64,000 nucleotides of DNA from an uncultured Gemmatimonadales bacterium (GCA_963798085.1 CAWCRS010000007.1:512001-576000), one strand, 5' to 3'. Shown: positions 5,880 through 51,223, numbered from the stretch's first letter. A program made the numbers and translations. Notes: a model not told the origin generated them from the letters alone.

Positions 5880-8505
5880 ATGAAACACACAAGAGCACCG
5901 CGCACACCGCTGCATCTGCTGCGACTGCTGCTCCCCCTGGCCGAGCGCGACGAGGTGTGCGCGGACCTGGAGCGGGAATACGCGCGGCGACTGCACCGCC
6001 AGGGTCGCCGGCGGGCGGATTTCTGGCTATGGCGTCAGGCGCTGCGGTCCTCGCCTGCGCTGCTGCGCCGCAGCTGGTGGCGGGGGAAGACGGGATTCGA
6101 ACCGGAAGCGAATCGCCTGAGAACGGGAGGCCCCATGCTGGAGAGCTGGGTCATGGATGTTCGCTATTCGGTGCGGCGCCTTGCGAGACGACCGCTCTAC
6201 GCGCTGCTGGCAGTGCTCACGCTGTCGCTGGGCGTGGGTGGCGCGGGCGCAATTTTCACGATCGTGCGCTCGCTGCTGCTGGACCCGCTGCCGGTCGCCG
6301 CGGAACGCGACCTGGCGGTGTTCTGGAATGGCGGCGACTGGTCGGAGCAGGAATTCCTCTCCTTGCGTGGTCAGTTCGCAGGCTTTCGCCAGGTAGCGGC
6401 ATTCCGCCACGCAGGTGTGACGCTGGAGGCGCCGGGTGCGTCGCCTCGCCTGGTGGAAGGCGTGGCGTCGTCGTCGGAATTTTTCGATGTCCTGGGCACG
6501 CCTCCACTGCTTGGTCGCACGCTGCGCGCGGGCGATGATGCCGTGGGGGCGGCGCCCATCGCAGTGATCGGCTGGGGCCTGTGGCAGCAGCTGGGTGGCA
6601 ACGCCTCGATCATCGGCTCGCAGCTGATGATGAACGGGAGTGGGCACACGATCGTGGGCGTCATGCCGCGCGCCTTCTGGTTTCCCGATCCGTCTGTGCG
6701 CATTCTGGCTGCCGCAGCCGTTGCACCCGGAGTCGAGAACTGGCAACTACGCGCTGATCGGGCGCATGGATCCGGGGCTGACGATTGCCGGCATGAATGC
6801 GCCGCTGGCGCGCATCACGTCGTTCCTGGCAGCGCATTACACGTATCCGGCGCAATGGGACAAGACGAAGAACGCGACGCTGATTCCGGTCCGCGACTTT
6901 GTTGCCGGGCCGGTGCGTCCCGCGCTGCTCGCGACACTGGCCGCCATGGCGGCGATCCTGCTGATGGCGTGCGCGAACGTGGCGGCGCTGATGCTGGGCC
7001 AGGTGGATGGCCGAGGCGAGGAGATGGCGTTGCGCACCGCACTGGGCGCCGGCCGGCTGCGGTTGCTGCAGCAGCTGGGCGCGGAGGCGCTGCTGGTGGG
7101 GCTCATGTCGGGCGTCGCCGGCGCGGGCGTGGCGCTTACTGCATTCCCGATGCTGGTGCACACGCTGCCGCTGGGTGCACTGGCGGAAACCGCGCGCGCG
7201 GGCTGGCCCGTGATGCTCATGGCGATGGTGATCGCGCTGGCCGGTGCGTTGCTGGTGGCCGCTGTTCCTGTGTTCGCGCTATGGCGGAGTGACCTGCGTG
7301 ACGCCATCGGAACCGCGCGCACGACCGGGCTCAGCCAGGGCGGGCGCCTGGAGAGCGGTCTCGTCGTGCTCGAGGTGGCGCTCGCCGTGCTGATGGCGTC
7401 GGGCGCGGCCCTGCTGATTCGCAGCGTCGACAAGCTGGGTGCGATCGATCCCGGCATCGACGCGGGTGGTGTCGGCGTGATCGACATGGCGCTGCCCGCG
7501 AATCTGGCTCCACCCGACCGCAGGCGACTGCTGGCCGAGGTCGTGCCCGGTCTCGCGGCGCTGCCCGGTGTACGCAGCGCGGCGGCCACATCGAAGCTGC
7601 CGCTGCGCGGGACCGGCGACAACTGGGGCATCGTGCTGGTGGCGAAGCCGGAGCTGCCCATGACCACGACTGCCTTCCGTGTGATAACACCGGATTACTT
7701 CCGGGTCCTGGGAATGGCGCTGAAGCGAGGCCGGCTGTTCGAGGAAGCGGACCGGGCGGCCCCGGCACCCGTCGTCGTCATCAATGAAGCGCTGGCGCGG
7801 AAGTATTTCGCGGGCGGGGACCCGATCGGCCAGCAGATCGGCGGGGCCGGGCCCCGCCCTGCCACGATCGTAGGCGTTGTCGCGGACGCGGCGGAAGCGC
7901 GTCTCACGGATGCCGCCGTGCCTGCGCGCTACATGCTGTACGAGCACGCTCCCTATGCGCCGGCGGGGAATGCGCTGGTGCTGAAGCTGCAGCGCGTGAG
8001 TGACATGGGTCCCGCGCTCGCAGCGGCGCGCGCCCTGATCGAGAAGACCATCCCGGGAGCGGCGGTGCAGACGACGACCAGCCTGCAGCAGGTGCTCGCG
8101 GAGAGCATGGGGCCGGCGCGGCAGACGCGTTCCCTGCTGGCACTGCTGGCGGGACTGGCGCTGGTGCTGGGCGCGGTGGGCGTATACGGCGTCACGGCGC
8201 ACGCGGTGTCCCGCCGGCAGCGTGAGATCGGCATTCGCCTGGCGCTGGGCATGCGGCGCTCACGGGTGGTCGGCCGCATCCTGGTCCGAGGCGGCATGCT
8301 GATCGGCGCGGGCATTGCTGCGGGCGTCCTCGCTTCGCTGTTCGTGACGCGCGTCGTGGCCTCGCTGTTGTACGGCGTGGCGGTGAACGATCCGGTCGCG
8401 CTGCTGGGGGCGACGGCGACTCTGCTGGCGGCGGGACTCGCGGCAACGGCAATTCCCGCGTGGCGGGCGAGCCGCTTCGATCCCGCGGTCGTGCTGCACG
8501 AGTGA
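5880..8505 (+). CDS. ADOP/MacB-type duplicated ABC permease with prefix-domain-2-like N-terminus; +1 frameshift near 6702-6705
   Basis: ORF 5880-7292 matches the family up to FPDPSVR; the +1 frame continues WLPQPLHPE...MACANVA...RREIGIRLALG...DPAVVLHE. Removing one base joins them. Confidence 0.88.
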
Positions 8506-8533
8506 CTAACGATGTGTTTGAGGAGTGCGAAAC

Positions 8534-8866
8534 ATGGGCGCGGGGCCGCTGGGCAATTTCGAGGAACAGGTGCTGATCGCGGTGCTGCGAACGGCGGGCG
8601 AGGCGTTCGGCATGAATGTGCGTCGCGAGATCGAGAGTGTGACCGGGCGTGACGCCGCGATCGGAGCCGTCTACGCCACGCTGGACCGGCTCGAGGCGAA
8701 GGGTCTCGTAACGTCGGCACGGCGCATGCTGGACAACCAGTCGCGGCGTGTGTTCACCGTCCGGCATGCCGGTCTGGTGCAACTGGCGGAAACGCAGGCC
8801 ATGCGCGACCGTCTGTGGCGGGATGTCGACCTGGCGCGTCTGCTGAAGGGTAATCGGCCGCCATGA
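8534..8866 (+). CDS. PadR family transcriptional regulator (LGxFE class)
   Basis: AGGAG RBS; LGNFEEQVLIAVL, GAVYATLDRLEAKGLV, RRVFTV winged helix. Confidence 0.9.
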   Translation: MGAGPLGNFEEQVLIAVLRTAGEAFGMNVRREIESVTGRDAAIGAVYATLDRLEAKGLVTSARRMLDNQSRRVFTVRHAGLVQLAETQAMRDRLWRDVDLARLLKGNRPP

Positions 8867-13263: not shown

Positions 13264-13286
13264 GGTCGTGTCTCCGGTTGCTCATA

Positions 13287-13306
13287 CCTTGTCATCCGAC
13301 AATAGG
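13287..13306. promoter_or_regulatory. Palindromic operator TTGTC-N4-GACAA (putative acidobacterial-PadR site)
   Basis: CCTTGTCATCCGACAATAGG, 16/20 identical to 38474-38493 upstream of the second padR. Confidence 0.7.
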
Positions 13307-16001: not shown

Positions 16002-16012
16002 CTCTCACTCTC

Positions 16013-29220: not shown

Positions 29221-29603
29221 CGGGGGACCCTACCTGTCAGGATCGAACGACACACGTCAGATCGTGGAGTTGCACTGCTCGTGCCAGATCGAGCGAGTGG
29301 GGCGTGGCTTCGTGTCAAGGGCCTCACGCGCGGGCGCATGGCGTGGTAACGGGCGCGCTCCCGTGACACACCCGCGTTACGAGGTGGACAGGCTGTACCG
29401 GGCGCGTAAGATAGTGCCTGTGCCCGGGAAAAAGTAGCGGCGTCCGCGAGCGCAGCCGAACCCCCGGTCCGCAGCCCCCGGTTACGCGCCGGTGACGTTG
29501 ACAGGAAGCGTCGCATGACGACAGGTTGTGGCGGCATGATCAGAGGCCCAGGGCGAGGCATCCGGAGCAGCAGAGCGGAGGGCTCCGGTCCGGACTGCAC
29601 AGC

Positions 29604-32142
29604 ATGGTGAGCCTCCTTCCTCCCGGCGCGCCAGCTGCCGCGGCGACGCAGAGTGTCGCTGTGATTCTCGGACACGGTTCCGAAGAAGCCTTCGATCGAC
29701 TGACGCGACTCGCGACGCTCGCGCTGCGCGTTCCGCTCGCGGTCGTCTCGCTCATCACCGATGGACGTCTGCTGCTGAAGAGTCAGGTCGGCATGCCCGA
29801 GCCATGGGCCACCGACCGGGATGTGCCGCTGCCCCACGCGATTTTCCGTCATGCCGTCGCTACCAGCAAACCATTCGTGGTGGAGGACACGGCGCGTCAT
29901 CCGCTCACGCGCGACATGCTGCTGGGAGAGGAGTGGGCGCACGCAGCCTACTGCGGGATTCCGCTGATGCAGGAGGGCCGCCGCGCTGTCGGCGTCCTCT
30001 CGGTAATGGATCGCAAGCCTCGCACGTGGACGCCGCGCGAGATCAGCTTCCTCCAGGATCTCGCCGCATCCGCCGCCGAAGCGGTACAGGAGCGCATGCG
30101 TCCGTCCTTGCCGATCGAGCCGGAAACGGTGGAAGTCACCACCAGCGTGACCGACGCGATTGTCGGCCTCGACAGCGAATGGCGAGTGACGGCTGTGAAC
30201 GCGCGCGCCGAAGACATCCTCGGACGCGCTGCCGGCTCCATCATTGGACTGCCCCTGCTCGAGGTTTTCCCCAGCCTGGATGGGAGCATCTTCCAGCAGG
30301 AATGGCGCCGGGCACTCGCGCAACAGGCCACCATCGAGCTGGAGGCCCACTGCGACACACTGGGCCGCTGGCTGGAAACACGCGCCTGGCCCGCGCAGGG
30401 CGGCCTCGCGATTCAGCTGCGCGACGTGTCCGCGCGCCGCAATGCCGAGGACGCACTGCGTCAGAGCGAGGCGAGGTATCGCAGCGTCTTCCAGGAAGCA
30501 CGCGATCCGATGTTCTTTACCTCACCAGACGGCACCATCATCGAATGCAATCGCTCCGCGATCGAGCTGCTCGGGCACACCCGTGACGATCTGTTCCGCC
30601 AGCGCTTCGAGGATCTGGTCGCTGATTCTGCGGCACGCGAAGAACTCGAGAAGGAGCTGAAGTCGAAGGGCGAAGTCGCGGATTTCGAAGCGCAGCTGCG
30701 TACCAGCACGGGCGGCCGGCTGGACACACTGATCTCGATATCGTCGCGCCAGAGCTCGAACCAAGAGCCGGCCGGTTTCCGCGTTTCCGTGCGCGACAAC
30801 ACCGAACGCAAACAGCTGGCGCGCCAGCTGCTGCAGAACGCCTTCCACGACCCGCTGACCGGCCTGGCCAACCGCGCGGTGTTCCTGGACCGCCTCGATC
30901 GGCTCTATATGCAGGCGCAGCGCCGGGCCGGCTATCGCTTCGCCGTGCTGTTCATCGATCTCGACCGCTTCAAGATGGTGAACGACACGTTCGGTCACAT
31001 TGCCGGCGATGAGCTGCTCACCACCGTGGCCCGCCGGCTCGAGGGATGCCTGCGGCAGGAAGACAGCGTGTCGCGCTTCGGCGGCGACGAGTTCGGCATC
31101 CTGCTGGACGGCGTACAGGATGTGCGCGACACGACGCGCATCGCGGAACGCATCAACAACGAGCTGGGCATGCCCATGCGTCTCGGCCCGCGCGAAGTCG
31201 CGTGCTCCGCCAGTATCGGCATTGCCATCAGCAGTGAAGGCCACGAGCGGGCCGAGCAGGTGTTGAGCGACGCCGACGCCGCAATGTACCGGGCGAAATC
31301 CAGCGGCGGCGCCCGTTATGAAGTGTTCGACACCGAGATGCACGTGCGCGCGCTGGCGCAGCTCCGGCTGGAGTCCGATCTGCACCGGGCCGTGCGTGAA
31401 GGCGAATTCCTCGTACACTATCAGCCTGTCATATCGGTGGACGCCGGATTCATTGCCGGCTTCGAAGCGCTGCTGCGCTGGCGCCACCCGGAACGCGGCC
31501 TGCTGCACCCTTCCGAGTTCGTCGCCATCGCGGAACAGACGGGCCTGGTGAGCGACATGGGCTGGTTCGTGCTGGAGCGCGTCGCCGAACAGATCAACGA
31601 GTGGAAGGACGTCGCGCGTCCCGCCCATGCTGCAGCTGGGCGTGGGCCTCAACCTCTCGCCCCGCCAGTTCCGCCATCCGGATCTCATGCGCCACATCGA
31701 TCAGGCGCTGCAGGACGGGACGCTCGAAGGACGCTACCTGCGCATCGAAGTGACCGAAGACACGCTGATGGAGGATGCCGACTTCGCCTTCGATGTGCTG
31801 GCACGCCTGCAGGAGCGTGGCGTGGGCGTGAGCATCGACAATTTCGGCACCGGCTTCTCCTCACTGCGCTACCTGCAGCGGTTGCCCATCGCCGCACTCA
31901 AGATCGACCGCACCTTCCTGCGCGCGCTGGATCGTGATCCCTACAACCGCGGTGTGGTCGAGAGCATCGTGGCACTGGGCCGGTGCATGGGCATCGACGT
32001 GGTCGCGCAGGGCGTGGAAAACCTCGAGCAGCTGGCCGAGCTGCGTCGCATGGGCGCGCGCTACGCACAAGGCTACCTCTTCTCCGAACCCCTCGACCCC
32101 GACTCCGCCACCGACCTCGTCCTCGAAGGCCTCCGCGACTAG
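29604..32142 (+). CDS. GAF-PAS-PAS-GGDEF-EAL protein; +1 frameshift near 31621-31630
   Basis: FDRLTRLA (GAF), two PAS domains, HDPLTGLANR, RQED...FGGDEF, FEALLRW. The EAL domain continues in the +1 frame (NLSPRQF, EVTE, DNFGTG, KIDR, QGY). Confidence 0.9.
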
Positions 32143-35166: not shown

Positions 35167-36900
35167 CTATGTGTGAGGTTTGTCGAGTGAGGGTCGGGTG
35201 TCGCGGTTGCCCAGCTCGAGCATCAGGTCGCGGATGTAGTTCGTGATGCGTGCGTAGTGCGGATAATCGATATACTGCGCCTCGTCCGTCACCTGGTGGT
35301 AGTCCTGGTGCAGGCCGGTGAAGAAGAAGGCGATGGGGATGTTGTAGCGCGCGTAGTTGGCGTGGTCGCTGCGGCCGTAAATGTTGTTGTAGCCCGGCCA
35401 GGTAGTGGCTTCATCGAAGCGGTAATCCAGGTCGAGCGGTTTCTGCTCGTGCTGGTTGACGGCGGCGACGATGTTGCCGAGGTCGGTGGAGAGACGCTTC
35501 GAGCCGACCACGCCCAGATAGTCGGGGCCGGCGCCCGGCATGTCGCCCGTGCGGCCGCGGCCGATCATGTCGATGTTGATCTGCGTAACAATGGAGTCGC
35601 GCGGCACTGTGGGGTGATCGGTGAACCAGCGCGAACCGCGCAGTCCGCCCTCTTCACCCGTATGCCAGACGAAGAGAATGGAGCGCCGCGGTTTCACGGG
35701 TGCGAGTGCCAGTGCTTCCGCGATTTCGAGGACCGCCATCGAGCCCGAGCCATCATCATCGGCGCCGTTGCGGATGGAGTCGCGACGCGCCGGCCGGATG
35801 CGCCGCAGGCTGTCCACGTTCACCGTGATGGAGGCGCGTTCATCGGGCGTCAGCGCACGCAGATCGCCGCCGGCCATTTCCATGCGCAGCACCGCGCTGT
35901 TGAAGGCGCGCAGGGAATCGTGATCGACGGGCGTCGCATTGTATCCGATGTGATCATTGTGCGCGCCAATGGCGACGTATTCGCCGGCCAGTGCGGGATC
36001 GCGACCCCGGATGATGCCGACCACGTTGCGACCCCAGTCCGGGACGGGCGTCTCCACGTAATCGAGGTGTGCCGTGACCGTGCCGCCGGTCGCGCCGGGA
36101 GCCAGGCCGTCGGCAGACCGGCCCAGCAGCTGGGCCGCGGCTTCCGGCGTGATGCGCAGCGTGGCTCGGCTCGGGCCGGAAGGCGGTGGGTTGGCCGCGT
36201 CCGGATCCTCGAACGTCGCCTGCGTGTCGTTCAGGAAAGCGCGCTCCGACGGCGACAGGTTCTGCAGGTCGATGGTCGCCAGGGCCACGGCATCGGCGAA
36301 AGGATCCGGTGCGCCGCCACCACGACCGCCGCGGCCTCGCCCGCCAAATCCGCGACCCGCATCCGGCGAAGCGGAGAGCACGACGAACTTGCCGGCAGCC
36401 TGCTCAGCCGTGATGTGGCGCGTGCTGTCACCGGCCGTGCCGCCATAGATGACCGGCACGCCTTCCAGCGAGCGCGGCGCCGTGCGGCCGGGAACCGCCA
36501 CGAAGTCCGTCAGCCAGCGCAGGGCGCGGCCGTTCACCGTCATTGTCGACTTCGGCGTGTACCTGTGCTGCACGTAGGGCAGCGTCTGGAAATAGGTGCC
36601 GTTCTCACCCGCAGGGGTGATGCCCAGCCGTTTCAGCTCGCGCGCGATGTAGGCAGTGCCGCGCATATTGGCCTCGCGGCCCACCTGCCGGCCCAGCATC
36701 GAGTCGTCGGAAAAAATGTAAAGACGTGTTTGCAGATCCGCGACCGTGATCGCGGCCGTCGTGGGCCGCGGCGCGTGCTTGAGCGGATTGCCGAACTCGT
36801 TCAGCTGCGCCTGCGCGTGCAGCGGCGCATGCAGAACGGCGGCATACAGCAATGCCGAGAGTGGTACCGCGCGCCGAACCCGCCTGCGGAATTCAAACAT
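35167..36900 (-). CDS. M28 family aminopeptidase (secreted)
   Basis: Signal peptide; GAHNDH, GADDDGSG, GEEGGL, DMIG, RSDH, DYHQVTD. Confidence 0.92.
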   Translation of the reverse strand: MFEFRRRVRRAVPLSALLYAAVLHAPLHAQAQLNEFGNPLKHAPRPTTAAITVADLQTRLYIFSDDSMLGRQVGREANMRGTAYIARELKRLGITPAGENGTYFQTLPYVQHRYTPKSTMTVNGRALRWLTDFVAVPGRTAPRSLEGVPVIYGGTAGDSTRHITAEQAAGKFVVLSASPDAGRGFGGRGRGGRGGGAPDPFADAVALATIDLQNLSPSERAFLNDTQATFEDPDAANPPPSGPSRATLRITPEAAAQLLGRSADGLAPGATGGTVTAHLDYVETPVPDWGRNVVGIIRGRDPALAGEYVAIGAHNDHIGYNATPVDHDSLRAFNSAVLRMEMAGGDLRALTPDERASITVNVDSLRRIRPARRDSIRNGADDDGSGSMAVLEIAEALALAPVKPRRSILFVWHTGEEGGLRGSRWFTDHPTVPRDSIVTQINIDMIGRGRTGDMPGAGPDYLGVVGSKRLSTDLGNIVAAVNQHEQKPLDLDYRFDEATTWPGYNNIYGRSDHANYARYNIPIAFFFTGLHQDYHQVTDEAQYIDYPHYARITNYIRDLMLELGNRDTRPSLDKPHT

Positions 36901-38919: not shown

Positions 38920-39468
38920 GCACTGCGGGAGGCGGAATCAGGTGCAGGGGGACTTGATCTGTCCTGCGTTTCCTCGTGGTTTGTCTCCAGTCATTGATCC
39001 TTGCGTTTGAACGGCGCTGCGTTCGGGTGGTCGAGTGTGCTGTTCCGCTGCCTCCGCGTTGACGAAGTCTGCTTTCCGTTGATCGGCGTTTCCACACGGT
39101 ACATCACTCCGCGGCGGGCTACGAACGATCGGGAGTTCGCCACTCGGTCGGTTGGCGCTGGCGTGTTCGTGTGCGGTTGCTGAGCTGTCCGCATGCGCTG
39201 ACGTCCATCAATGGCGACGACGGATCACGTCAGCTGCCGCTGCAATGCGTTTCCATGGGTCGAGCAGGCGGGTTCGGGCTCGCCTTGCAATGCGTTACGG
39301 CGTGCTGCCCTCGGTACCCATGAGACTGCTCCCGGTGTAGACAGGTGGGGCCCGTTTCGCTGCGATGCTCTGTGTCCGCAGTGAACCCTCGCGCTGGAGA
39401 GGCGTGGGGACGGGAACGGGGCCTGATTGCGGAGCGGGCGATCGTAGCGCGACCCAGAGCGGATTGAC

Positions 39469-42400
39469 ATGGACGGCGGCGAACACAAAGCCACGACCAG
39501 TGCGAACAATGCAACCGGCGGCCGGGCGGCGCGTGCGTCGCGACGCTGGCCTCGGGTGCTGCTGCGTTCCACGCTTGCACTGGTGCTCGGGCTGATCCTG
39601 CTGCTCGCGCTGGTTGTCGCCATGCTGCAGAACAGCGCGATCGCGACGCGCGCGGCGAACGCGCTCGCGAGTCGGTTCAGTCCGTGGCCGGATGCGCATA
39701 TTGCAGTGCAGAGGGCGAGGCTGCGCGGACTGGGCGGTGTGACACTGGCGGGCGTGCGCATCACGCGAGCGGATGGCCAGGTCATGGTCGCGCTGGACAC
39801 AATGCAGCTGCGCATCCAGCCACTGGCGCTGCTGTGGGGACGCGTGTCCATGCCGGTGCTGCGGGTGCTGGGTGCGGATGTGCGCATGCGTCAGCGCGCG
39901 GATTCCAGCTGGGACCTGCTGGCTCCGTTCATGGGTGGAGACACGATCCGAGCCAGCCGCACGCAGCTGCGCATCGGAGAGGCAGAGCTGCTGCGCTCAC
40001 GCCTCGAGGCGCACTGGCTGGCGCAGAGTGATTCCGTGCTGCGCGTGGAAGACATCACTGTGCGTCTCGCGGGGCTCGCGCTGCCCGAGCCGATGCGCTT
40101 CTCGCTCGACACACTGAGTGCGCGCATCTATCCGCCTCTCCGTCCCGCACAGCCGGCGATGCTGGGTGCTCGCCTGCGGCTGAGCGATGGCCGCCTCGTC
40201 GTCGACGGCTTCAGTCTGCGCTCGGACTCGAGCAATGTTTCCGCAGCAGGCACGCTGCTGGTTCCGGGCGGCAGGGTCGATGACATCCACGATGCCGACT
40301 TCACCCTGGCGGCGAGCCCGCTCGACTTCCGCGATGTGGGCGCGTTCCTGCCGGGCTTCGATGTGCCGGGCAGTCTGCGGCTGCAGGCGCGCGTACGGGG
40401 AACCCCCTCGCTTCTCGACATTGAAGTGGATGGCCGCAGCTTCGATGGCGCCACGCTGCACGTCGCGGGAACGCTGACGCCGCGTACGCAGGGTGACGTG
40501 CGTTACCAGTTGCAGGCGACACTGCACGATCTGGATGCGGCGCTCTGGTCCGGCTCCGCGTCCGGGCTGGGCAAGGTCGACGCCACGGCCGATGTGGCGC
40601 TGGCCGGCCAGGCGCTGGACTCAGTCACGGGCAGCCTGCAGCTCACACTGGGCGGCACTCGCCTGGGCAGCGGGCGCCTGCGCTCGGCGCAGCTGGCTGC
40701 GCAGTTCACGGAAGGCCGGGCCGAAGTGACGGCGGAAGCCGAGGCGACGCCGTGGGTGCATGTCGCACTGCGCGGCGCTGCGCGGCCCTTCGCGCCCACG
40801 CCCGACTACGCCTTCGACATCGATGCTTGCCAGCTCGAGCCGCTCGGCACTGACACCACATTACAGCTGCACGCGGGCACCGTGCAGCTGCACCTTGCGG
40901 GTGCCGGTGTTGCGCGCGCGAACGCGAGAGGCAGCGCGCAGGCCCGCTTCAGCGCCGGCATCGGGGCGGTCATGGTGCGCGGGGGCGAGTTGACTGCGAA
41001 CTGGCAGGATGGCCAGGCCACGGCGAAGCTGGAGGCGTCGGTGGCGGAGGGCCAGGTCTCGGGAAGCGCGCAGGTCGATTGGCGCCATGCGGAAACGCGC
41101 ATCAGCGCGGCCCGGCTGAGTGCGCGCGGCATCGCTTTGGCGGGGCTGGTGGATTCCGCGGCGGGTACGCTGGATCTCGAAGGCACGGGCGACTTCGTGC
41201 CGGGCCGGAACGAAAGCCTGCGCGCGAATGCGACCGCCACCCTGCATGCGCTGGCCTGGGCGGGCAACCGGCTGACGGACACGGCGAGCGCGAACATTAC
41301 TGTTCGCAGTGGCCGGCTGCACGCCGAGGCCGTCGCGGCCGGGCCTGCGGGCCGCATGCTGCTGCGCGGCAATGCCCGGCCTTTCGCGAATACGCCCTCG
41401 TGGACGCTGGAAAGACTGGAGCTGCACGACGTCGACCTGGCGCGCGCAGACACAGCCTGGCCGAATTCGTCGATCAACGCGCTGCTGACGCTCGAGGGCA
41501 GGGGCCGCTCGCCGCGCGCGACGAGCGCGCGCGGACTGCTCACTTTCGATTCCCTGCGTGTCGGCGATCAGGTCATCCGTGACGGCCGGGTGGAGCTGGC
41601 GCTGGGCGAGGGTGAACTGCGCGCGGATCTCACCATGAAAGCGCTGCACGGTTCCATTGCGGCGAACACGCGCGGCACGCCGTTCGACAGCGTGCCCGCT
41701 TTCCACGTCGAGAATGCGCGCTTCCGCGACCTCGATCTGGCCCTGCTCACGCGCGGCTCGTTCAAAGGCGCACTGACAGGCACGATGCAGGCCAATGGCA
41801 CACTGCCGGGCGGGGCGCTGCCCGACGTGCGCGGCAGACTCGAGCTGGCGTCGTCGCCCATCAACGGGGGTCGGCTGCGCGATGGCCGCGCGACGTTCGC
41901 ACTGCAGGCGAGTCACGCTTCGCTGGACCTCGAGCTGAGGACGGACAGTGGCGTCGTCGCCTTCAATGGTCAGGCACAGGTGACGCGCGACACGACTGCC
42001 GCCAGCGGCGTACGCGTCTCGGATGCGAACGTCGAGGGCACTGCCCGGCTGCCCGACCTGGCGGCGCTCATGGGCCAGGATTCGAATGAGGCGGCGGTGG
42101 ATGCGCACTTCGCAATGGCGGGGGAAGGCCTCGACATCGAGACCATGCAATGGACCGCGCATGCGCGCGCCACCGGTCGCTGGGGCGGTGCGCACGTGGA
42201 CACGCTGCTGCTGCGTGCCGGTGTGCACGACGCGCGTCTGCAGCTCGATACCTTCCGCCTGCGTTCCAATGTGGCGCACGGCGACGGCAGCGGCATGCTC
42301 GCACTGCGCGGGCGCAGTTCCATTCCGCCGGAGCAGGGCATGCACATCCGCATTGTCGTGGACAGCGTGGCGCCGTTCGCCGCCATGCTGGGGCGGCACC

Positions 42401-44613
42401 CGCTGGCGTTGCGCACGGGCGTCATCGATCTGCGCGGCACGAACGACGCCGGCGGCACGCAGCTGCAGGCCACGGTCAACCTGGCGGGGCTCGTCAGCGC
42501 CTGGGTGATGGCGGACTCGATCGCGCTGCAGACAGGGGCAACCCTGGATGGCAGCACGTTGCGGCAGGCGGCTGGACAGTTCACGGGCATCGGGCTGGCG
42601 CAGGGCAGCATGTACCTGACGGGCATGACCGCACAGGGGACGTACGACGGCGCTGCGCTGTCCATTGAAGGCAGTGTGCAGCGTGACGAGCAGCACGACC
42701 TGCAGGTGAAAGCGACCGCCACGCCGCGCGAGCATTCCGTGGTGTTCGAGCAGATGCAGCTGGCGCTGCCGGGCAGCCGCTGGACCATCGCGCAGGCGGC
42801 GCGCATCGTGTGGTCACCGCAGATCCGCATCGAGGGTCTGACGCTGACATCCGGTGCGGAGAAGATCACGCTCAACGGCCGCATCGATCGCGCGGGCACG
42901 CAGGATCTGCAGTTGCAGCTGGATTCCGTGCCGGTGCAGGGCTTTGCCGAGTTTGCCGGCATTAACGGCCTGTCAGGCACGGCCAATGGCAGGCTGGAGC
43001 TGACCGGTCCGGCCACGCACATCGCGTTGCGCGGCGACATCACGACGCACCTCAATGGCGTGTCCGGGCACATCGCGGTGGAGCCCGCAGGCGATGATGC
43101 ACTGAGCATCAATGTGGCCATGACGGACGCTGCCCATCGACCGCTCCGCATCAATGGTCAGATGCCGTTCGCCGTCTCGATTGCCCCGGGCGACAGCGGT
43201 TTCGCCGGTCCGACGCATGGCAATGTGGGCTTCACGGTGAGCGCAGATTCCTTCGCGCTGGGCTGGCTCCAGCCCTTCGTACAGCCACTGCGCGTGGACC
43301 GCCTGCAAGGCTGGCTCACGGCGGACGCGCATTTCACGGGCACGTTCGACGCACCGGAAGCATCGGGCACGGCGAGGTTCGCGAACCTGCGGGTATCGGT
43401 ATCGAGCGAGGGCATCGACTATCGCAATGTGCAGGCAGCGCTGGCACTGCAGGGAGACCGCGTGCAGGTCAGCGCGCTGCGTGCGGAAGCGGAAGGAACC
43501 GTGACCGGTGAAGGGCAGCTGTTTCTGGAGAGCCTGAGCCGGCCGCGCTTCAATGTAACACTGCATTTCAACCGCTTCCGCGCGGTCCGCAATCAGTGGG
43601 TGAGGCTGGGCGTGTCCGGTGATGCCCACGTGACCGGTGACCTGGCGAAGCCGGTGGTCGAAGGCGCGCTGACGCTGGTCGACACCGATGTGTACGCGGA
43701 TCCGGCGGGTCAGGGCAGCACAGCAAGGCCCATCGAGCTGACAGCGGCCGATCTCGCGATGCTCGAGAGCTACTTCGGCTACAAGCCGTCTGCCGCGGCC
43801 ACGATGGAATCGGATCCACTGATGCCGTGGTCCATGAACCTGAAGGTCACGTTGGGCACCAATGTCTGGGCGAGGCGCACGGCGCGGCCCGAGATGCGCG
43901 TGCAGCTGGGCGGCTCGCTGGAAGTGCGCAAGGCACCGCAGGACTCAATGCAGCTGTTCGGCTCCATTGAGGTGCTGCCCCAGCGCAGCTACTTCGAAGA
44001 GTTCGGCAAGCATTTCTCGGTCAGCGACGGCACGATCACGTTCAACGGATCGGTGTGGGGCTGGACGGCGAACATCAAGGCGCGTTACCTGGTGCCGTCG
44101 TTCAAGGATCCCAACGCGTCCGAAGTCACGATCACGATGGACGTGACGGGTCCCATGGATGACCTGCGACTGACGCTCGGTTCCGAGCCCCCGCTGGAGA
44201 CGGCCGACATCCTCTCCTACCTGGCCACGGGCCGGCCGGCGGAGAGCGCGGCGTCCTTTGGTGGTGGCGGCGCGCGCGGCGGTCTGCTGACCGAAGGCGC
44301 GACGCTTGCCCTGGGCACGGCCGCCAACCTGCTGGAGCACACTGCCGGCGAAACCGTCGGCCTCGACGTGGTGGAGATCCGGCAGGACGGATTGCGCGGC
44401 GCCACCCTGATAGCAGGGCGTTATGTGTCACCGCGACTGTACGTCGGTTTCCAGCAGCCGCTCACCTTGCGCGACAATCAGGATCCCGCGAATACGACCA
44501 GTCGTGGCACGCAGGTGGAGATCGAATACACGGCGTATCGCTGGCTGCTGCTCAACCTGCAGAGCGGCCAATCGACGCTGAGCTTCTTCCTGCGCACCAA
44601 GCGCGCTTTCTGA
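39469..44613 (+). CDS. tamB: Translocation and assembly module TamB-like protein
   Basis: 1714 aa; N-terminal TM anchor, long beta-rich body, DUF490-like C-terminus (LGSEPPL...ILSYLATGRP, AGRYVSPRLYV). Confidence 0.88.
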   Translation: MDGGEHKATTSANNATGGRAARASRRWPRVLLRSTLALVLGLILLLALVVAMLQNSAIATRAANALASRFSPWPDAHIAVQRARLRGLGGVTLAGVRITRADGQVMVALDTMQLRIQPLALLWGRVSMPVLRVLGADVRMRQRADSSWDLLAPFMGGDTIRASRTQLRIGEAELLRSRLEAHWLAQSDSVLRVEDITVRLAGLALPEPMRFSLDTLSARIYPPLRPAQPAMLGARLRLSDGRLVVDGFSLRSDSSNVSAAGTLLVPGGRVDDIHDADFTLAASPLDFRDVGAFLPGFDVPGSLRLQARVRGTPSLLDIEVDGRSFDGATLHVAGTLTPRTQGDVRYQLQATLHDLDAALWSGSASGLGKVDATADVALAGQALDSVTGSLQLTLGGTRLGSGRLRSAQLAAQFTEGRAEVTAEAEATPWVHVALRGAARPFAPTPDYAFDIDACQLEPLGTDTTLQLHAGTVQLHLAGAGVARANARGSAQARFSAGIGAVMVRGGELTANWQDGQATAKLEASVAEGQVSGSAQVDWRHAETRISAARLSARGIALAGLVDSAAGTLDLEGTGDFVPGRNESLRANATATLHALAWAGNRLTDTASANITVRSGRLHAEAVAAGPAGRMLLRGNARPFANTPSWTLERLELHDVDLARADTAWPNSSINALLTLEGRGRSPRATSARGLLTFDSLRVGDQVIRDGRVELALGEGELRADLTMKALHGSIAANTRGTPFDSVPAFHVENARFRDLDLALLTRGSFKGALTGTMQANGTLPGGALPDVRGRLELASSPINGGRLRDGRATFALQASHASLDLELRTDSGVVAFNGQAQVTRDTTAASGVRVSDANVEGTARLPDLAALMGQDSNEAAVDAHFAMAGEGLDIETMQWTAHARATGRWGGAHVDTLLLRAGVHDARLQLDTFRLRSNVAHGDGSGMLALRGRSSIPPEQGMHIRIVVDSVAPFAAMLGRHPLALRTGVIDLRGTNDAGGTQLQATVNLAGLVSAWVMADSIALQTGATLDGSTLRQAAGQFTGIGLAQGSMYLTGMTAQGTYDGAALSIEGSVQRDEQHDLQVKATATPREHSVVFEQMQLALPGSRWTIAQAARIVWSPQIRIEGLTLTSGAEKITLNGRIDRAGTQDLQLQLDSVPVQGFAEFAGINGLSGTANGRLELTGPATHIALRGDITTHLNGVSGHIAVEPAGDDALSINVAMTDAAHRPLRINGQMPFAVSIAPGDSGFAGPTHGNVGFTVSADSFALGWLQPFVQPLRVDRLQGWLTADAHFTGTFDAPEASGTARFANLRVSVSSEGIDYRNVQAALALQGDRVQVSALRAEAEGTVTGEGQLFLESLSRPRFNVTLHFNRFRAVRNQWVRLGVSGDAHVTGDLAKPVVEGALTLVDTDVYADPAGQGSTARPIELTAADLAMLESYFGYKPSAAATMESDPLMPWSMNLKVTLGTNVWARRTARPEMRVQLGGSLEVRKAPQDSMQLFGSIEVLPQRSYFEEFGKHFSVSDGTITFNGSVWGWTANIKARYLVPSFKDPNASEVTITMDVTGPMDDLRLTLGSEPPLETADILSYLATGRPAESAASFGGGGARGGLLTEGATLALGTAANLLEHTAGETVGLDVVEIRQDGLRGATLIAGRYVSPRLYVGFQQPLTLRDNQDPANTTSRGTQVEIEYTAYRWLLLNLQSGQSTLSFFLRTKRAF

Positions 44614-46823
44614 TGGGCGGTGGGCGCGGACCGCGGCGCAGCACGCGGAACAGGCGAAGATCTGCGTCCGGCTGGAAGTGCGGGGCGGCGCTGGCGGGAC
44701 TGGCAATCGTGACGCTGGCGCGATCGGCACAGGCGCAGATTCCATACGCCGTGTTCGACGCCGCCACGCAGGTGCGTTCGCTGCATTTCGAATTTCCGTC
44801 CGGCCGCAGCTTCCCGGTGTCCGAGCTGAAGCTGGAGATGGCGCTGAGCGCGCCCGGCGCGCTGTACAGCATCCGTCGGTTGCTTGCGATCCTGCCACTG
44901 GTTCCGGACCCGCCGCCCCATCCGTTCACGCCCCTCGAGCTGCAGCGCGACGTGGCGAGGCTCCGGCGCTTCTATGCGGATGCCGGTTTCCTGGGCACCG
45001 GCGTTCACTATGACGTCGCCTTCGATCGCAGTCACAATGCGGTGCGCATCCGCATGATCGTCGACGAAGGCAGGCCCGTCATTGTGCGCTCGATCGCCGT
45101 GCAGACGTCGGCGGGCGGGGACCCGGGGACGCAGCTGCCGGAGGCGATGCAGGCCGCCTGGCGCAACTTCGTGCAGGGCCGGCAGGATCTGATCGGTGCG
45201 CGTCTCACGGACACGGCGCAGACGCGCCTGGTGGGCCGCGTGCTCGACTGGTGGATGGCGCGCGGCTGGGCGTTCGCACAGGCCGCTTCGGAGGTGCGCG
45301 TGGATTCCGCGAGCGCGAGCAGCGACGTGCGCGTGACACTCGATCCGGGACCGCGGGCGCGTGTCGACAGCATTCAGATCGAAGGGAATCACAGCGTATC
45401 TGACGCGCTGGTGCGGCGCACCGTGCCGCTGGCACCCGGCGACTGGTTCTCGTCGGCGAAACTCGCGGCGGGACAGCGCCGTCTCTTCGCGCTGAACCTG
45501 TTCCGCCTGGCGCTCACCGACGTGCCCGCGCAGCCGGCCGATTCGACGGTGACGATCCGCGCGCGTGTGGAAGAGAGTGCGCCTCGCCTGCTCACTGGCG
45601 AACTGGGTTACGTCACCGCCGGCGGGCTGACGACGCGCGGCCAGTTCCTGCACCGCAACTTCACGGGCGGCGCCCGCACCCTGGACGTGTCCGGCGTCGC
45701 CCAAACAGGCGTGTTAGCAGGCGGCGAGCTGCCCGAACGCGACTTCCGGCTTTCCGTCTCCTATCGCACGCCGCAGCTGTTCCACGATCCCAGACTGTCG
45801 CTCACCCTGGCGCCATTCGGCGAGTACCGCGACAACCAGGTGGACCGCTCCTGGCAGTACGGTGTGGAGACTACGGTGATCTATGAGCTGGGGCCCTACC
45901 GCTTCGTCACGTTCCAGCACCGCCTGAGCTCGCGCCGCGTGCTCGACTATCGCATCGGCTCGGGAAGCAGCATCGACCTGGTCACACTGCTGCAGCTGCT
46001 GGCGGAAGGCGCGCTCGACTCGGTGGGCACCCGCATCGATCGCAGCACGTTCTCGCTCTCCGGCACGATCGGTCGCTTCGACCCGGGCACCACGACCCGC
46101 GCACTGCAGTTCCGGCCCAGCGCGGAGATCACGGCGCCGCCCAGCACCAACACCATCGAGTTCTGGCACGCAGAGCTGCCGCTGGTCGGCTTCCTGCCAT
46201 TGCGGCGTCGCGTGTCGCTGGCGGCGCAGGTTTCGGTGGGGCGGGTGTTCCCGTTCGGCAAGACCGTGACCGGCGACAGTATCAGCGGCGGGTTGCAGGT
46301 GCTGCAGCTGCGCGACGTGCTGCTCACCGCGGGCGGCACGGGAAGCATCCGCGGCTGGGGTACGGGCCTGCTCGGTCCCAAGTTCGTTAACATCGAGTTT
46401 CCCGGCCTGCCCGTTACCGATTCGAGCCAGCTGGTCGCCAACGGCTATGCCCCCAGCGGTGGTCTGGCGCGCGCCACGGCGTCACTCGAGCTGCGCCTGC
46501 CGTTCCCCGGTCTCAGCGAACGCTGGGCGACGCACTTCTTCACGGACGCGGCACGCGTCTGGAACCCCGATTCCCGCTATCACGTCGACGACCCCTATGG
46601 CCAGCAGCGCTGGTTCTTCGGTGCAGGCGGCGGCATCGATGTGCGCACGCTGATCGGACCCATCCGCGTCAGCCTTGGCTACAAACTCAATCCCTCGCCG
46701 CTCGATCTGCGCGACGCGGACCGCGTGCTGCGCGCGCTGCAGCAGGACCTGCCATTGTCCACGGTCCCGACGGACTGGAAGCACCGGTTGCACATCCATG
46801 TTTCGCTCGGACAGAGTTTCTGA
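44613..46823 (+). CDS. Omp85 family (TamA/BamA-like) outer-membrane protein
   Basis: POTRA-like repeats (IEGNHSV), GGTGSIRGW loop-6 motif, terminal SLGQSF; TGATG coupling to tamB. Confidence 0.88.
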   Translation: MGGGRGPRRSTRNRRRSASGWKCGAALAGLAIVTLARSAQAQIPYAVFDAATQVRSLHFEFPSGRSFPVSELKLEMALSAPGALYSIRRLLAILPLVPDPPPHPFTPLELQRDVARLRRFYADAGFLGTGVHYDVAFDRSHNAVRIRMIVDEGRPVIVRSIAVQTSAGGDPGTQLPEAMQAAWRNFVQGRQDLIGARLTDTAQTRLVGRVLDWWMARGWAFAQAASEVRVDSASASSDVRVTLDPGPRARVDSIQIEGNHSVSDALVRRTVPLAPGDWFSSAKLAAGQRRLFALNLFRLALTDVPAQPADSTVTIRARVEESAPRLLTGELGYVTAGGLTTRGQFLHRNFTGGARTLDVSGVAQTGVLAGGELPERDFRLSVSYRTPQLFHDPRLSLTLAPFGEYRDNQVDRSWQYGVETTVIYELGPYRFVTFQHRLSSRRVLDYRIGSGSSIDLVTLLQLLAEGALDSVGTRIDRSTFSLSGTIGRFDPGTTTRALQFRPSAEITAPPSTNTIEFWHAELPLVGFLPLRRRVSLAAQVSVGRVFPFGKTVTGDSISGGLQVLQLRDVLLTAGGTGSIRGWGTGLLGPKFVNIEFPGLPVTDSSQLVANGYAPSGGLARATASLELRLPFPGLSERWATHFFTDAARVWNPDSRYHVDDPYGQQRWFFGAGGGIDVRTLIGPIRVSLGYKLNPSPLDLRDADRVLRALQQDLPLSTVPTDWKHRLHIHVSLGQSF

Positions 46824-47057
46824 TCGGAAGCGAACGGCGGGAGGGGGCTCGCGCTGGGGCCGGGAGTGGTCGTCGCACAGCTGCTGATTCGGCGAGGTGC
46901 TCGGTTGTCGCCAGGGAAACCGCGGTCCCGTTCGTTCGTTAAGGCGGAATGAGCGCGCATCATGAACCCGTCGCACGCTTCACGCTTTCGTGCAATGCCA
47001 GCGGCACCGATCCTTGAGGGGAAGCACATGACGCGGGCTGTCGAGGTATAGCGTGCG

Positions 47058-47696
47058 ATGAGCAAGATGGAGCAACCGATGCCCGAACCCAACGCCGCAC
47101 TGCCACAGACCCGGAAGTCGATCGACAATCCCTACGCGGTTAGCGGCGCCGGGATCGGCGGGCGCATCGTCGCGTTCCTGCGGCGCCGGCTGGCTCCTTT
47201 TATCGACGGATACGAAGAGCATGGCTGGTCGGGAAAGCTTTTCCTGCTGAACGGTGGGCTGGGCATCGCCGGCTCAGTGCTCGGCTGGAGCGGTGCCGTG
47301 CTGCTCAACACGCTGCGCCTCGGGCTTCTGCGCGGCATGGGCCTCACCATGGTGGCCGGTCTGGTGGGGCTGCCGTTCCTCCGCATCTGGTACCGCTATC
47401 TGCTCGGCGTTGCGCGCTTCGAGCGGTGGACATTGCCCATTACGGTCGTGCTGTCCGCGTGCGGCGCGATCAGCGGACTCGGGCTGCTCACGGGCCGCAT
47501 GGGCTGGCGCACCATGCTCATCGTTGGCGCGCAGTCCGCGCTCTCCGTCCAGTACCTCGTGTATTTCCTGCGCGAACGCCACCGCTTCGTTGTCGCGAAG
47601 CCCGCCCGCCGGGTCCGCGCAGCGAAGGATCTGCCTGCTCCCCCCACGCCTGCGCCCGCCACGGACAAGGTTGACGATTCGATCGCGTCATCCTGA
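47058..47696 (+). CDS. Hypothetical membrane protein (about 4 TM segments)
   Basis: Four hydrophobic segments; coding-like codon bias. Start uncertain. Confidence 0.65.
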   Translation: MSKMEQPMPEPNAALPQTRKSIDNPYAVSGAGIGGRIVAFLRRRLAPFIDGYEEHGWSGKLFLLNGGLGIAGSVLGWSGAVLLNTLRLGLLRGMGLTMVAGLVGLPFLRIWYRYLLGVARFERWTLPITVVLSACGAISGLGLLTGRMGWRTMLIVGAQSALSVQYLVYFLRERHRFVVAKPARRVRAAKDLPAPPTPAPATDKVDDSIASS

Positions 47697-48221
47697 CACG
47701 CTGTCAGGCGAGGCGCGTCGCGCGGTGACAGGTGGGCGTGCTGCCGATCCGCATGTTCAGCCAGTGGAGCGATGACCTTGCCGGCCGCCGGTCCGAAGAG
47801 CCGTGACACCGCGGCCGCTGCAGGCGATCGCATCCCCGGAAACACTGCGGTGGAAGGCGAGGGCAGTCGTTCATCCGACGGTGTGACGTGTGCCGTCCCG
47901 GAATCCGCCAACCCGGGCCCGGGTCTCGTGCGCCCTGCTTCGCTGGATGACCGTGCAGGCAGCCGAGGGCGGCGCGGGCCAGCGCGCAATCTGACAACGG
48001 GATGACCCGCCCGGGCCTGGAGGCCCCGTCAGCCGGAAGCGCGCGCGGCGTGCGGTGTAGTCGGATGCGGGCGGGCCGGCGACGTAGCGGGGGTCGAGCA
48101 GTGCGCGCCGCGGCGTGCGTCCGGCCATGTGGCGCAGGCTTTACAGGCGGAGCGGTCCGCGCCAGTATGCCAGCACCCGGGAGTCCGGTTCCCGGGGCGG
48201 ATTCTCGCAAAAGGAGCACAC

Positions 48222-51200
48222 ATGCGTCTCGTGTATGGGACCGTGCATCGGCTGCTCGCCGTTCTGCTGGTCGCGTTGCCGTCCGCGGCGGCGGCCCAGG
48301 GGGGCGGACGCGGCAATCAGGAACCGCAGGCGCCGCCCATCAATCCGGCGGATGACGCCATGCTGCGCGGCTTCCGCTGGCGATCGATCGGGCCGGCCGG
48401 GCAGGGCGGTCGCGTCGATGACTTCGCGGTAGTCGAGGGCAATCCCTCGATCTTCTACGTGGGCTTCGCCACCGGCGGCATCTGGAAGACGGTCAACAAC
48501 GGCACCACGTTCGAGCCCGTCTTCGATACCTACGGCACGCACTCCATCGGCGACCTCGCGTTGTCGCCTTCCAATCCGGATGTGCTGTACGTCGGGACGG
48601 GTGAGCCCAACAACCGGCAGAGCGCGTCCTTCGGCGCCGGCGTCTACAAGAGCACGGACGGAGGCAAGACCTTCACGTACATGGGGCTCAAGGAGACGCA
48701 GAGCATTGGGCGCGTCGTCGTGCACCCCACGAATCCGAACATTGCCTGGGTGGCGGCCGTGGGCCACCTGTTCGGGCCCAACCCGGAACGCGGCGTGTTC
48801 AAGACGGCGGACGGCGGCAAGACCTGGCGCAAAGTGCTGTTTGTGGATGAGAACACGGGCGCCTCGGACCTGGCCATCGACCCATCGAATTCTAACATTC
48901 TGTATGCGAGCACCTACCAGCGCCGGCGCACGGTGTGCTGTTTCGTGGGCGGCGGGCCGGGCAGCGGTCTCTGGAAGAGCGAGGATGGCGGGGAGCACTG
49001 GACGCGGTTGAGCGGCAACGGTCTGCCGCGCGGCACCATGGGCCGCATCGCGCTGGACGTGTCCCGCTCCACGCCTAACATTGTGTATGCACAGATCGAA
49101 GTGGCGCCCGACCGCGAGACGCCGGTTGCCGTGCCCGACTCCGGACGCGGCGGGCGGGGCGGACGCGGTGGTGGCGGCGGCGGTGGCGGCGGTGGTGGTG
49201 GCGGACGTGGGCAGAACCTGCCGCCCGACCCGCAGGCCAGCGGTGTGTGGCGCTCCACGGACCGCGGCAAGAGCTGGGAGTTCATTGCCAACCAGAACGA
49301 CCGGCCCATGTACTTCAGCCAGATCCGCGTCGATCCCAACAACGACAAAGTGCTGTACACGGGCGGTGTCTCGGCGCAGAAGTCGGTGGACGGCGGCAAG
49401 ACGTGGAAGTCCATTGAGGAAGGCAAGGGCCATGTCGACAACCACGCCATTCTGGATCGATCCGCACAACAGCAACCACGTGATGTACGGCAACGACGGC
49501 TCCGTCGACGTGTCGTGGGACGCGGCCGAGACCTGGGAATCGCTGCGCCCCTGGGCGGTGGGTCAGTCGTATCACACGTCGGTCGACATGCGCCGGCCCT
49601 ACTGGGTGTGCACCGGGCTGCAGGACAACGGCAGCTGGTGCGGTCCCAGCAGTGCGCGCGCGAACAGCATCCTGTCGTGGGACTGGTTCAATGTAGGCGG
49701 CGGCGACGGCTTCTACAGCGCCATCGATCCCACGGACTGGACCACGATCTATTCGGAGTCGCAGCAGGGCTCGATCAACCGTCTCGATCTGCGCCAGGGC
49801 TCGAGCGACGGCATTCGTCCGCGAGCGCCCGGTGCCGGCCGTGGCGGTGGTGGCGGCGGAGGTGGCGGCGGCGGGTTCGGTCCGCCCGGGACTAACATCG
49901 TGCCAGAGCCGCCCACGGGCACCGAGCTGCGCACCAACTGGAATTCGCCGATCCTGATCTCGCCGCACAATCCGCGGCTCATTTACATCGGCACCGACCG
50001 GTTCATGAAGTCCTATGACCGCGGTGAGACCTGGACCATGAGCGAGGATCTCACCAAGGGCATCGACCGCAGCACGCTCACCATCATGGGCCGCAAGGGC
50101 GACCTGCCGAACTGCGGGCGGCAGCACCAGGGCGAGTGCATTCTGTCCAAGAATGACGGCACCAACTTCTGGGGCACCATCTCGTCGATCGGGGAATCGC
50201 CGCTCGTGCCCGGCCTTCTCTGGGTGGGCACGGATGACGGCAACATCCAGCTCAGCAGGGACGGCGGCGCCACGTGGACGGAAGTGGGCAAGAACATCCC
50301 CGGTGGGACCAGGGACTACTACATCTCGCGGGTGGAGCCATCGCATTTCGATGCGGCTACGGCCTACGCCTCCGTCGACGGCCATCGCAGCGATGACCTG
50401 AAGCCGTACGCGTATGTAACACGCGATTACGGCAAGACCTGGTCGCCCATCAGCAGCAACCTGCCGGAGTGGGGCAACGTGAACTCCGTGCGCCAGGACC
50501 CGAAGAACCAGAACCTGCTGTATGCGACGACGGAGTTCGGGTTCTTCGTCTCGCTGGATGAGGGCAAGTCATGGAAGTCGTTCATGACCGGGCTGCCCGT
50601 GGTGCGTGTGGACGATGTGCTGATTCATCCGCGCGACAACGACCTCGTGCTGGCCACGCACGGGCGCAGCGTGTGGATCATGGATGACATCACGGCGCTG
50701 CAGCAGGCGACTCCCGAGAATCTGGCGAAGGACGTGTACCTCGCCGAACCGCGCGAGGCCGTGCTGTGGAAGAGCGACCGGCGGCTGATGCGCGAAGTGC
50801 CGGGCGAGAAGCACTTCCACGGCGAGAACGCGCCGCGTGGCACGGCCATTTCCTATTTCCTCAAGAGCGCACCAGCCGGCGACGTGAAGCTCACCATCAC
50901 GGACCTGGCGTCCGGCGAAGTCTTCCGAACACTCGAGGCCACGAAGCTGCAGGGCCTGAACCGTATCCAGTGGGATCTCTGCAGTGACCAGCACGAGGTG
51001 CAGCCCGGCCAGGGCCGCGGCTTTGGTGGGGGCGGTGGCGGCGGTGGTGGGTGTGGTGGTGGTCGTGGGGGTGGTGGCGGCGGCGGTGGCGGACGCGGTC
51101 AGGGACCGGTCATGGTGGCACGACTGGCAACGCCGGGCATGTACCGCGTGACGCTGAGCGTGGGTGGCAGGGAATACACACGCAACGTGAACGTGCTGGA

Positions 51201-51223
51201 AGACATCTCGGATGGAGATGTAA
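48222..51223 (+). CDS. Large secreted Asp-box/BNR (VPS10/sortilin-like) beta-propeller protein; +1 frameshifts near 49449-49452 and 51209
   Basis: AAGGAG RBS, signal peptide, WRSIGP, many SxDGGxTW boxes across ORFs 48129-49895 and 49081-51432. Corrected junctions read DNHAIWIDP and VLEDIWMEM*. Confidence 0.85.

Follow-up and report, generated by a model that had tools for sequence, protein, structure and literature searches.

Clustering of +1 frame shifts at GATG/CATC in a soil Longimicrobiales genome: probable nanopore consensus errors at a putatively methylated motif

Why should four breaks of the reading frame within one stretch of bacterial DNA all be of the same kind and lie in similar sequences? 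The question is raised by a 64,000-nucleotide stretch (the window, G000:C7:512001-576000) of the genome G000 (6.23 Mb, 12 contigs, 90% complete), in which an earlier note had seen four +1 frame shifts. The order label Longimicrobiales comes from the naming of homologs of one window gene, and DNA of the window was found in one run only, a soil metagenome. The earlier note ascribed the shifts to a context-specific long-read error at the 9-mer CATCTGGNT that might reveal a DNA modification. Our analysis replaces the 9-mer by the 4-mer GATG/CATC. The shifts are almost certainly sequencing errors, and a modification at GATG/CATC is likely. The best specific explanation, which we hold to be probable rather than secure, is that they are nanopore consensus errors caused by N6-methyladenine (6mA) in GATG/CATC, with a D12-class adenine methyltransferase as the predicted writer on the GATG strand.

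A dicodon Viterbi model with frame-shift moves, trained on 2341 long open reading frames (ORFs) of G000, placed a total of four shifts in the window (6744, 31623, 49455 and 51214), each of them +1. They are the same four that the earlier note had listed, and homologs agree that one continuous gene runs across each break. The strings named there (CATTCTGGCT at 6701, CATTCTGGAT at 49448, CATCTCGGAT at 51204 and CATGCTG at 31626) are all present. The broken genes and the break sites are as follows.

About 5880-8505, MacB/FtsX ABC permease gene, split by CATTCTGGCT at 6701
6701..6710, plus strand, CATTCTGGCT: extra T in CATC (on the other strand GATG read as GAATG), from the Viterbi model and homologs
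About 29526-32142, GAF-PAS-GGDEF-EAL gene, its EAL domain split at the fourth site
31608..31616, plus strand, window GACGTCGCG: fourth site as corrected here, from one contig of run X1, depth 3.3
About 48129-51220, Vps10/BNR-repeat gene with two breaks (49448 and 51204)
49448..49457, plus strand, CATTCTGGAT: extra T in CATC, first break of the Vps10/BNR-repeat gene
51204..51213, plus strand, CATCTCGGAT: extra C two bases 3′ of CATC, second break of the Vps10/BNR-repeat gene

Removal of one base had been proposed to restore Ile-Trp each time. This agrees with the relatives at the two breaks of the Vps10/BNR-repeat gene: at 49448 two relatives read ATC TGG ATC (protein HAIWID), where the window has one T more, and at 51204, in the last codons of the gene, relatives read (L/V)(E/D)D(I/V/T)WM, ending DIWM, DVWM or DTWM. 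At 6701 the Ile-Trp reading is not pinned down, since the paralogous ABC permeases that span the break align there with small gaps. The fourth shift had been read as an extra G in CATGCTG at 31626. The X1 contig that covers 31450-31847 (four other letters and one gap) retains CATGCTG and lacks base 31616 instead, ten bases upstream. The same contig has T at 31610, which gives GATG at 31608-31611 where the window has GACG. Past the 31626 break the EAL domain resumes in the +1 frame (Pfam positions 3-79, then 86-236). Over the genome as a whole, too, CATGCTG shows no enrichment at shifts (14 of 1973 coding sites).

The same model was applied to the whole of G000, in which 4424 gene segments, each longer than 300 nt, were counted. 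It found 965 shifts, 746 of them +1 and 219 of them -1, touching 677 of the segments. Of the 746 +1 shifts, 190 had the word GAATG/CATTC no more than 15 nt away (29.4 expected, p about 1e-94). Both strands were affected, and the motif stood in both orientations relative to the gene (70 versus 122), which excludes a ribosomal signal. Programmed frameshifting and random pseudogenisation, both already doubted in the earlier note, are not supported. Stepwise removal of the top word brought up CATTCGA, AGATG/CATCTC, CATTC, GATCGA and finally CATC itself. Near words remained at chance close to +1 shifts (GAATC 43 versus 44 expected, GAACG 100 versus 96, CAATG 69 versus 77; GAAGG likewise). CATG, CCWGG (54 versus 74 expected), AGCT, GANTC and GAATC, tried as motifs, were at or below chance.

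Homologs sharpened the position of the insertions. A gap-free homolog spanned the break in 337 of 739 events, and 188 of these passed the sharpness and score filters. After mending, 67 of the 188 junctions lay within 5 nt of GATG/CATC (19 expected); among the sharpest the figure was 29 of 43 (4.4 expected). In 46 of the 67 motif junctions the change was an exact doubling, GATG to GAATG, preceded 5′ by A in 22, C in 18, G in 5 and T in 1. About 49% of the +1 shifts are linked to the motif (493 of 739 regions versus 257 expected). The remainder cluster tightly (median spacing 0.7 kb versus 3.0 kb) and look like ordinary low-depth errors.

The proposed genome-wide count of indels thus yields a strong enrichment for GATG/CATC and none for CATCTGGNT. 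The window contains no intact copy of CATCTGGNT. Its five intact CATCTGG sites and the two bases that follow them are as claimed; for the site on the minus strand, 37684 is the 5′ end. Genome-wide, however, 178 intact copies exist on both strands, 154 of them in coding DNA. In coding DNA the ratio of broken to intact sites was 12:154 for CATCTGGNT and 24:573 for CATCTGGNV (7% versus 4%, Fisher p=0.10). The 9-mer is neither depleted nor preferentially broken; with NT and NV sites broken about equally often, its appearance in the window is a small-number effect. Nor does a 'broken' string by itself signify an error, since CATTCTGGAT at 1992 (minus strand) sits in a shift-free gene. What stood is the more general proposal of a context-specific long-read error pointing to DNA modification, which is supported by the insertion excess, by its presence on both strands and in both orientations, by matching substitutions and by a fragmented congeneric genome, G001, with few insertions and none at the motif.

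GATG occurs at 72,419 sites in G000 (both strands counted), and only about 0.3% of them carry an insertion. The word is not avoided (observed/expected, O/E, 1.02), as expected for an orphan mark. No cluster of GATG was found at dnaA (8 GATG in the 1390 nt upstream) or in the intergenic DNA of G000. In 203 broken sites there was no clear base preference beyond positions -1 to +6 of CATC, apart from slight signals at -8 and +6, and a bipartite, Type I-like motif was rejected. GATC was considered as a second motif: TCGATC, but not GAATC, was enriched near +1 shifts (58 versus 15 expected), and CTCATC and CTGATC cannot be told apart by homologs. A difference at 31702 between the window and X1 favours a GATG origin for the GATC-type error. 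A SATC motif is another possible source of the TCGATC signal; such a motif is reported for one marine viral genome (PMC8919816).

After removal of the GATG-type words, AAGAAC (12 versus 1.6 expected) and CCGGGCA (20 versus 6.4) were still enriched near +1 shifts; they may represent a minor second motif or repeats of paralogous genes.

Substitutions point to the same motif. As an outside comparison we aligned contigs of run X1 with the window and obtained a difference table of 37 rows. Six rows (38607, 48794, 48795, two at 48797, and 50668), mainly X2/X3 or near contig ends, were dropped as likely other organisms. Among the 31 single-base differences kept, GATG/CATC is restored by six (0.9 expected, p=3e-4) and destroyed by none. 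The window words at these sites are four AATG (on either strand), one GACG, which is the site at 31610, and one GATC. The other five sites are listed below.

31699..31702, plus strand, window GATC, X1 GATG (C versus G at 31702)
35968..35971, plus strand, window AATG, X1 GATG (synonymous Ile on a minus-strand gene)
39289..39292, plus strand, window AATG, X1 GATG
42985..42988, plus strand, window AATG, X1 GATG (Asn in the window, Asp in X1)
49980..49983, plus strand, window CATT, X1 CATC (synonymous Ile)

The same direction of change was found in coding sequence of the whole genome. Where relatives have a conserved aspartate, G000 has Asn (AAT) in 74 of 530 RAT codons preceded by C and followed by G, and in 12 of 487 preceded by C and followed by another base (p=9e-12). 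Little of the G-to-A change lies outside CGATG. A de novo 4-mer substitution scan was poorly calibrated, with equally small p values in control genomes; only its CATC C-to-T row (98 versus 60) is used here.

Changes of this class are also frequent outside the motif. Single-base amino-acid changes between G000 and relatives comprised 4142 C>T/G>A and 2281 A>G/T>C; the corresponding numbers were 2281 and 1996 for G001 and G010 together, and 15 and 4 between the window and X1. A wider load of G-to-A miscalls, or a lineage bias, may exist beyond GATG. G000 also contains 48 in-frame stops (27 TGA, 18 TAG, 3 TAA) flanked on both sides by coding-like sequence, compared with 1-3 in the samples from relatives. 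These stops are unlinked to GATG, and some TAG or TGA codons might be recoded.

A sequence of events that would produce both kinds of change can be proposed. The few, long contigs and the error profile point to a long-read origin of the assembly, presumably nanopore. The D12 enzyme would place 6mA on the GATG strand, and in reads of that strand the G next to the methyl group would be miscalled as A, whereas reads of the other strand would be correct. With coverage as low as in a soil genome bin, the consensus would either take the wrong base (AATG) or keep both (GAATG). In the latter case an either/or call between the strands, G or A, would be written as GA, creating the +1 shift. The other merged words, GAGATG and GATCGA, would follow the same either/or pattern. 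Placing the mark on the GATG strand fits published data: in R10.4.1 reads, G-to-A errors are reported to sit on the modified strand, together with a disturbed signal (PMC11610603). The window genes carrying the four breaks would then be intact in the cell.

Other genomes were run through the same model. In 647 kb of G001 (same genus as G000, 250 contigs) the model placed 4 insertions and 8 deletions, and none of them fell at the motif. This is a density of 6 insertions per Mb, compared with 120 per Mb in G000. In G010 there were 8 insertions and 5 deletions in 400 kb, one of them at CATTCT. G013, a second family genome in few contigs (5), shows the same signature as G000: over the 0.8 of 5.2 Mb examined it had 51 insertions and 11 deletions, with 7 insertions at CATTC (0.9 expected) and 6 of the 51 at CATTCT (0.14 expected). 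The D12 enzyme is present in G013. In G036 (8 contigs), examined over 0.39 of 4.3 Mb, the family ortholog of this enzyme was not found. Its 394 kb contained 24 insertions and 2 deletions, with one insertion at CATTC (0.32 expected) and none at CATTCT (G036 versus G000, p=0.015). G036 cannot be taken as devoid of any D12 enzyme, for it carries an unrelated Dam-like one beside an insertion sequence, and it was kept as a control only for the absence of the family ortholog. Five further genomes (G019, G021, G023, G025 and G027, 80 kb each) had 2 insertions altogether and were uninformative.

The methyltransferase set of G000 consists of a Type III Mod-Res pair, a Type I locus, a Dcm-like enzyme with Vsr, and two adenine methyltransferases encoded at the following positions.

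G000:C5:177724-178785, stand-alone D12-class adenine methyltransferase, 354 aa (PF02086, 94 bits over a cut-off of 22)
G000:C1:262737-266123, gamma-class/Type IIG-like adenine methyltransferase, 1129 aa

The D12 enzyme was found in 56 of the 66 genomes of the family set, mostly at 52-70% identity; the 134 other genomes gave only distant matches, in 5 of them. Its catalytic set, an FxGxA-type motif and DPPY, is invariant or nearly so in 23 sequences, in all of which D30-P31-F32-x-G34 and D225-P226-P227-Y228 are conserved. The SAM-binding motif lies near the N-terminus and DPPY follows the recognition domain. Translations of the neighbouring genes were inspected in 15 family loci and in 14 kb of G000: the neighbours looked like housekeeping-type genes, and neither a nuclease nor another methyltransferase could be recognised among them. 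Conserved in the family and with no cognate nuclease seen, the enzyme is an orphan methyltransferase. Over 337 residues it aligns (34%, E 9e-52) to the N-terminal half of a fused methyltransferase encoded beside a FokI-type nuclease, and the N-terminal half of M.FokI is described as recognising GGATG (PMC3985630, citing Friedrich 2000). The predicted fold has a pLDDT of 88.9; the nearest solved fold is that of Escherichia coli Dam, a weak match (Foldseek E 1.7e-4, TM 0.37), and a PDB sequence search gave no match. From homology and a weak contrast of presence and absence, we think it reasonably probable that the D12 enzyme is the main writer of the GATG/CATC mark.

The Type III Mod was rejected as writer, as PF01555 was not found in G013, which has the signature.

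Several observations weigh against this explanation. The direct check by X1 covers one of the four window sites (31616), with a single contig at a depth below 5; at 49448 and 51204 the comparison has no gap row, and the listed X1 pieces leave both sites uncovered, 6701 is outside the compared stretch, and X1 possibly comes from the same sample as the assembly. The insertion rate varies with the 5′ base (AGATG 1.42%, CGATG 0.24%, GGATG 0.11%, TGATG 0.03%), so that the FokI site GGATG is a weak error context. At CATTCT, homologs cannot tell an original CATCT from CATTT, the two readings being synonymous. A weaker Asp-to-Asn skew is seen in G001 and G010 (9/236 versus 1/298), so that genuine mutation or codon context may account for some of the substitutions. 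Two expected excesses were not found (dots mark codon boundaries): CAT.C to CAT.T (4/194 versus 6/329), and TGG.ATG to the stop TGA.ATG. As a control G036 is small, and its difference from G013 is not significant (p=0.42). The D12 enzyme also scores nearly equally against three PADLOC methyltransferase models, and a CATG-type (NlaIII-like) specificity is conceivable on that ground.

The same artefact at the same motif could have another writer, the gamma enzyme marking CATC, either alone or together with the D12 enzyme on GATG. The gamma enzyme is family-specific (52 of 66 family genomes, 0 of the 134 others) and is present in G013. An origin on the CATC strand is conceivable for the TCGATC class and for the difference at 31610, where CATC appears as CGTC. 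Five REBASE enzymes for the motif include solitary gamma-group CATC methyltransferases, none of them with published support according to PMC12898733, and the D12 half of the Mycoplasma hominis system MhoVII is reported there to mark CATC, not GATG, which also speaks against our assignment of the D12 enzyme. However, G036 has the gamma enzyme and yet 0 of its 24 insertions fall at CATTCT. The two genes were lost independently in the family: 10 of the 66 genomes lack the D12 gene, 14 the gamma gene and 3 both, about the number expected by chance. The gamma enzyme has only marginal similarity (E 5e-4) to an N-6 methylase that forms a pair with a D12 homolog encoded on the same Paracoccus plasmid. 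We consider a role of the gamma enzyme as writer unlikely, but it is a real rival.

The gamma gene opens a module (G000:C1:262737-269659) in which it is followed by genes for a 207-aa protein and a 913-aa helicase-like protein; for its defence-type look the module is unusually stable.

No modification at all would be needed if basecaller or polisher failed at AGATG/CGATG because of the context. The strong dependence on flanking bases and the small share of GATG sites with an insertion suit such an error, and a G-to-A bias is reported to persist in amplified DNA (bioRxiv 10.64898/2026.01.14.699587). The same source finds the excess concentrated at methylation motifs, and G036 is equally insertion-heavy (24 versus 2) but lacks the signature. 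We give a plain context error a low probability.

Still less probable is a mark other than 6mA on the C of CATC or the G of GATG (4mC or 5mC, phosphorothioate, 7-deazaguanine). It is that G:C pair which is miscalled most, and an 8.6-kb contig encodes a Dcm-like cytosine methyltransferase and Vsr. Nevertheless, G-to-A is described as the dominant miscall class around methylation motifs in R10 data (PMC11610603; bioRxiv 10.64898/2026.01.14.699587), and CCWGG was not enriched near the shifts. The exotic or uncharacterised modification envisaged in the earlier note finds no basis in the gene content: ordinary adenine methyltransferases are present. In the 90%-complete genome, dndC, dpdA and DUF4007 (TIGR03183, NF041059 and PF13182; DUF4007 presumably serving as an sspB-type marker) were not found, and the only Tgt found was the canonical one.

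Real mutations or recoding (pseudogenes, phase variation or programmed frameshifting) are very improbable, for although outside reads bear on just one of the four window sites and a few genes with many shifts of both signs, as in the Type I locus on C3, may be true pseudogenes, 677 of the 4424 gene segments are affected, no homopolymer or repeat tract is involved, the extra base is missing from X1 at 31616, and the insertion density of G001 is 6 per Mb against 120 in G000.

The Type I restriction-modification locus itself (G000:C3:931440-938829) has either truly decayed or lies in a low-coverage stretch. The 8.6-kb contig, G000:C11, has a lower GC content (0.638) and encodes, besides the HTH-fused Dcm-like methyltransferase and Vsr, a likely nuclease; no +1 shift was predicted in it, and it may be mis-binned or mobile. 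GAGCTC is avoided in G000 (1404 versus 4194 expected, O/E 0.33), CAGCTG less so. The O/E of GAGCTC is 0.43 in G001 and 0.75-0.82 in G010, G013 and G036, which suggests a past or present restriction site in the genus. In the window, at 39469-46823, a 1714-aa ORF abuts a 736-aa ORF with a one-base stop/start overlap at 44613.

About 15% of the gene segments of G000 (677/4424) look broken, and roughly 1 in 8 CGATG sites may hold a wrong base. At GATG/CATC, single-nucleotide polymorphisms, protein sequences and counts of pseudogenes are untrustworthy in G000 and in similar nanopore-only bins. The errors at the same time provide a first, indirect look at the methylome of the family, and a clade-wide orphan GATG/CATC enzyme would represent a new, easily tested specificity. 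Our literature searches (Longimicrobiales/Gemmatimonadota combined with methylation) found no published methylome for Longimicrobiales and no report of GATG/CATC in Gemmatimonadota. A marine study is reported to have found neither motifs nor methyltransferases in its two Gemmatimonadetes genomes (PMC8919816). The main texts of Nanomotif (bioRxiv 10.1101/2024.04.29.591623), PMC11651109 and PMC13340088 contain nothing relevant to motif or taxon, although the Nanomotif supplements could list the motif.

The class of artefact is already known; what is new is the rarely described motif together with a family-wide candidate enzyme. Consensus errors at Dcm motifs of Oxford Nanopore assemblies were described by Wick 2019 (PMC6591954), and C2T/G2A errors on the modified strand in PMC11610603. 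The errors of G000 resemble those published in affecting a short motif with its flanks, in the dominance of G-to-A and in touching only a share of the sites. They differ in that the motif is non-palindromic and the damage consists of +1 insertions rather than mainly substitutions; the G000 signature, moreover, is known from assembled sequence. 6mA at GATG/CATC does exist: MhoVII of M. hominis was the first validated case, in 2026 and in a restriction system, the motif having been virtually unknown before according to the same report (PMC12898733). G000 shares with MhoVII the motif, a D12-class domain and, if our assignment holds, 6mA. Compared by description, MhoVII is a fused two-domain methyltransferase, accompanied by a restriction nuclease in 27% of isolates, whereas the G000 enzyme is single-domain, has no recognisable nuclease adjacent and occurs in 85% of the family. 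Methyltransferases of the M.FokI type (GGATG/CATCC) are similar in that the G000 enzyme can be aligned over its length with the N-terminal half of one of them, the half on the GGATG side; unlike the M.FokI type, G000 has neither the second half nor a FokI-type nuclease, and the predicted motif lacks the first G. Being a single 354-aa domain with no linked nuclease seen and a site that is not avoided, the enzyme stands apart from Type IIS restriction-modification systems such as FokI and MhoVII.

Dam (GATC) and CcrM (GANTC) are orphan housekeeping methyltransferases. The D12 enzyme is like them in being clade-wide, in having no nuclease partner and in a site that is not avoided. It differs in that their sites are palindromes marked on both strands, whereas GATG is asymmetric and one enzyme would therefore mark one strand. 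Tentatively, the Longimicrobiales family could possess a restriction-free, Dam/CcrM-like housekeeping 6mA on one strand of GATG, at tens of thousands of sites, written by a lone enzyme resembling the N-terminal half of M.FokI, possibly with a second, unlinked family-specific enzyme on CATC. A mark of this kind would not be inheritable by the usual logic of hemimethylation, and its role would differ from those of Dam and CcrM.

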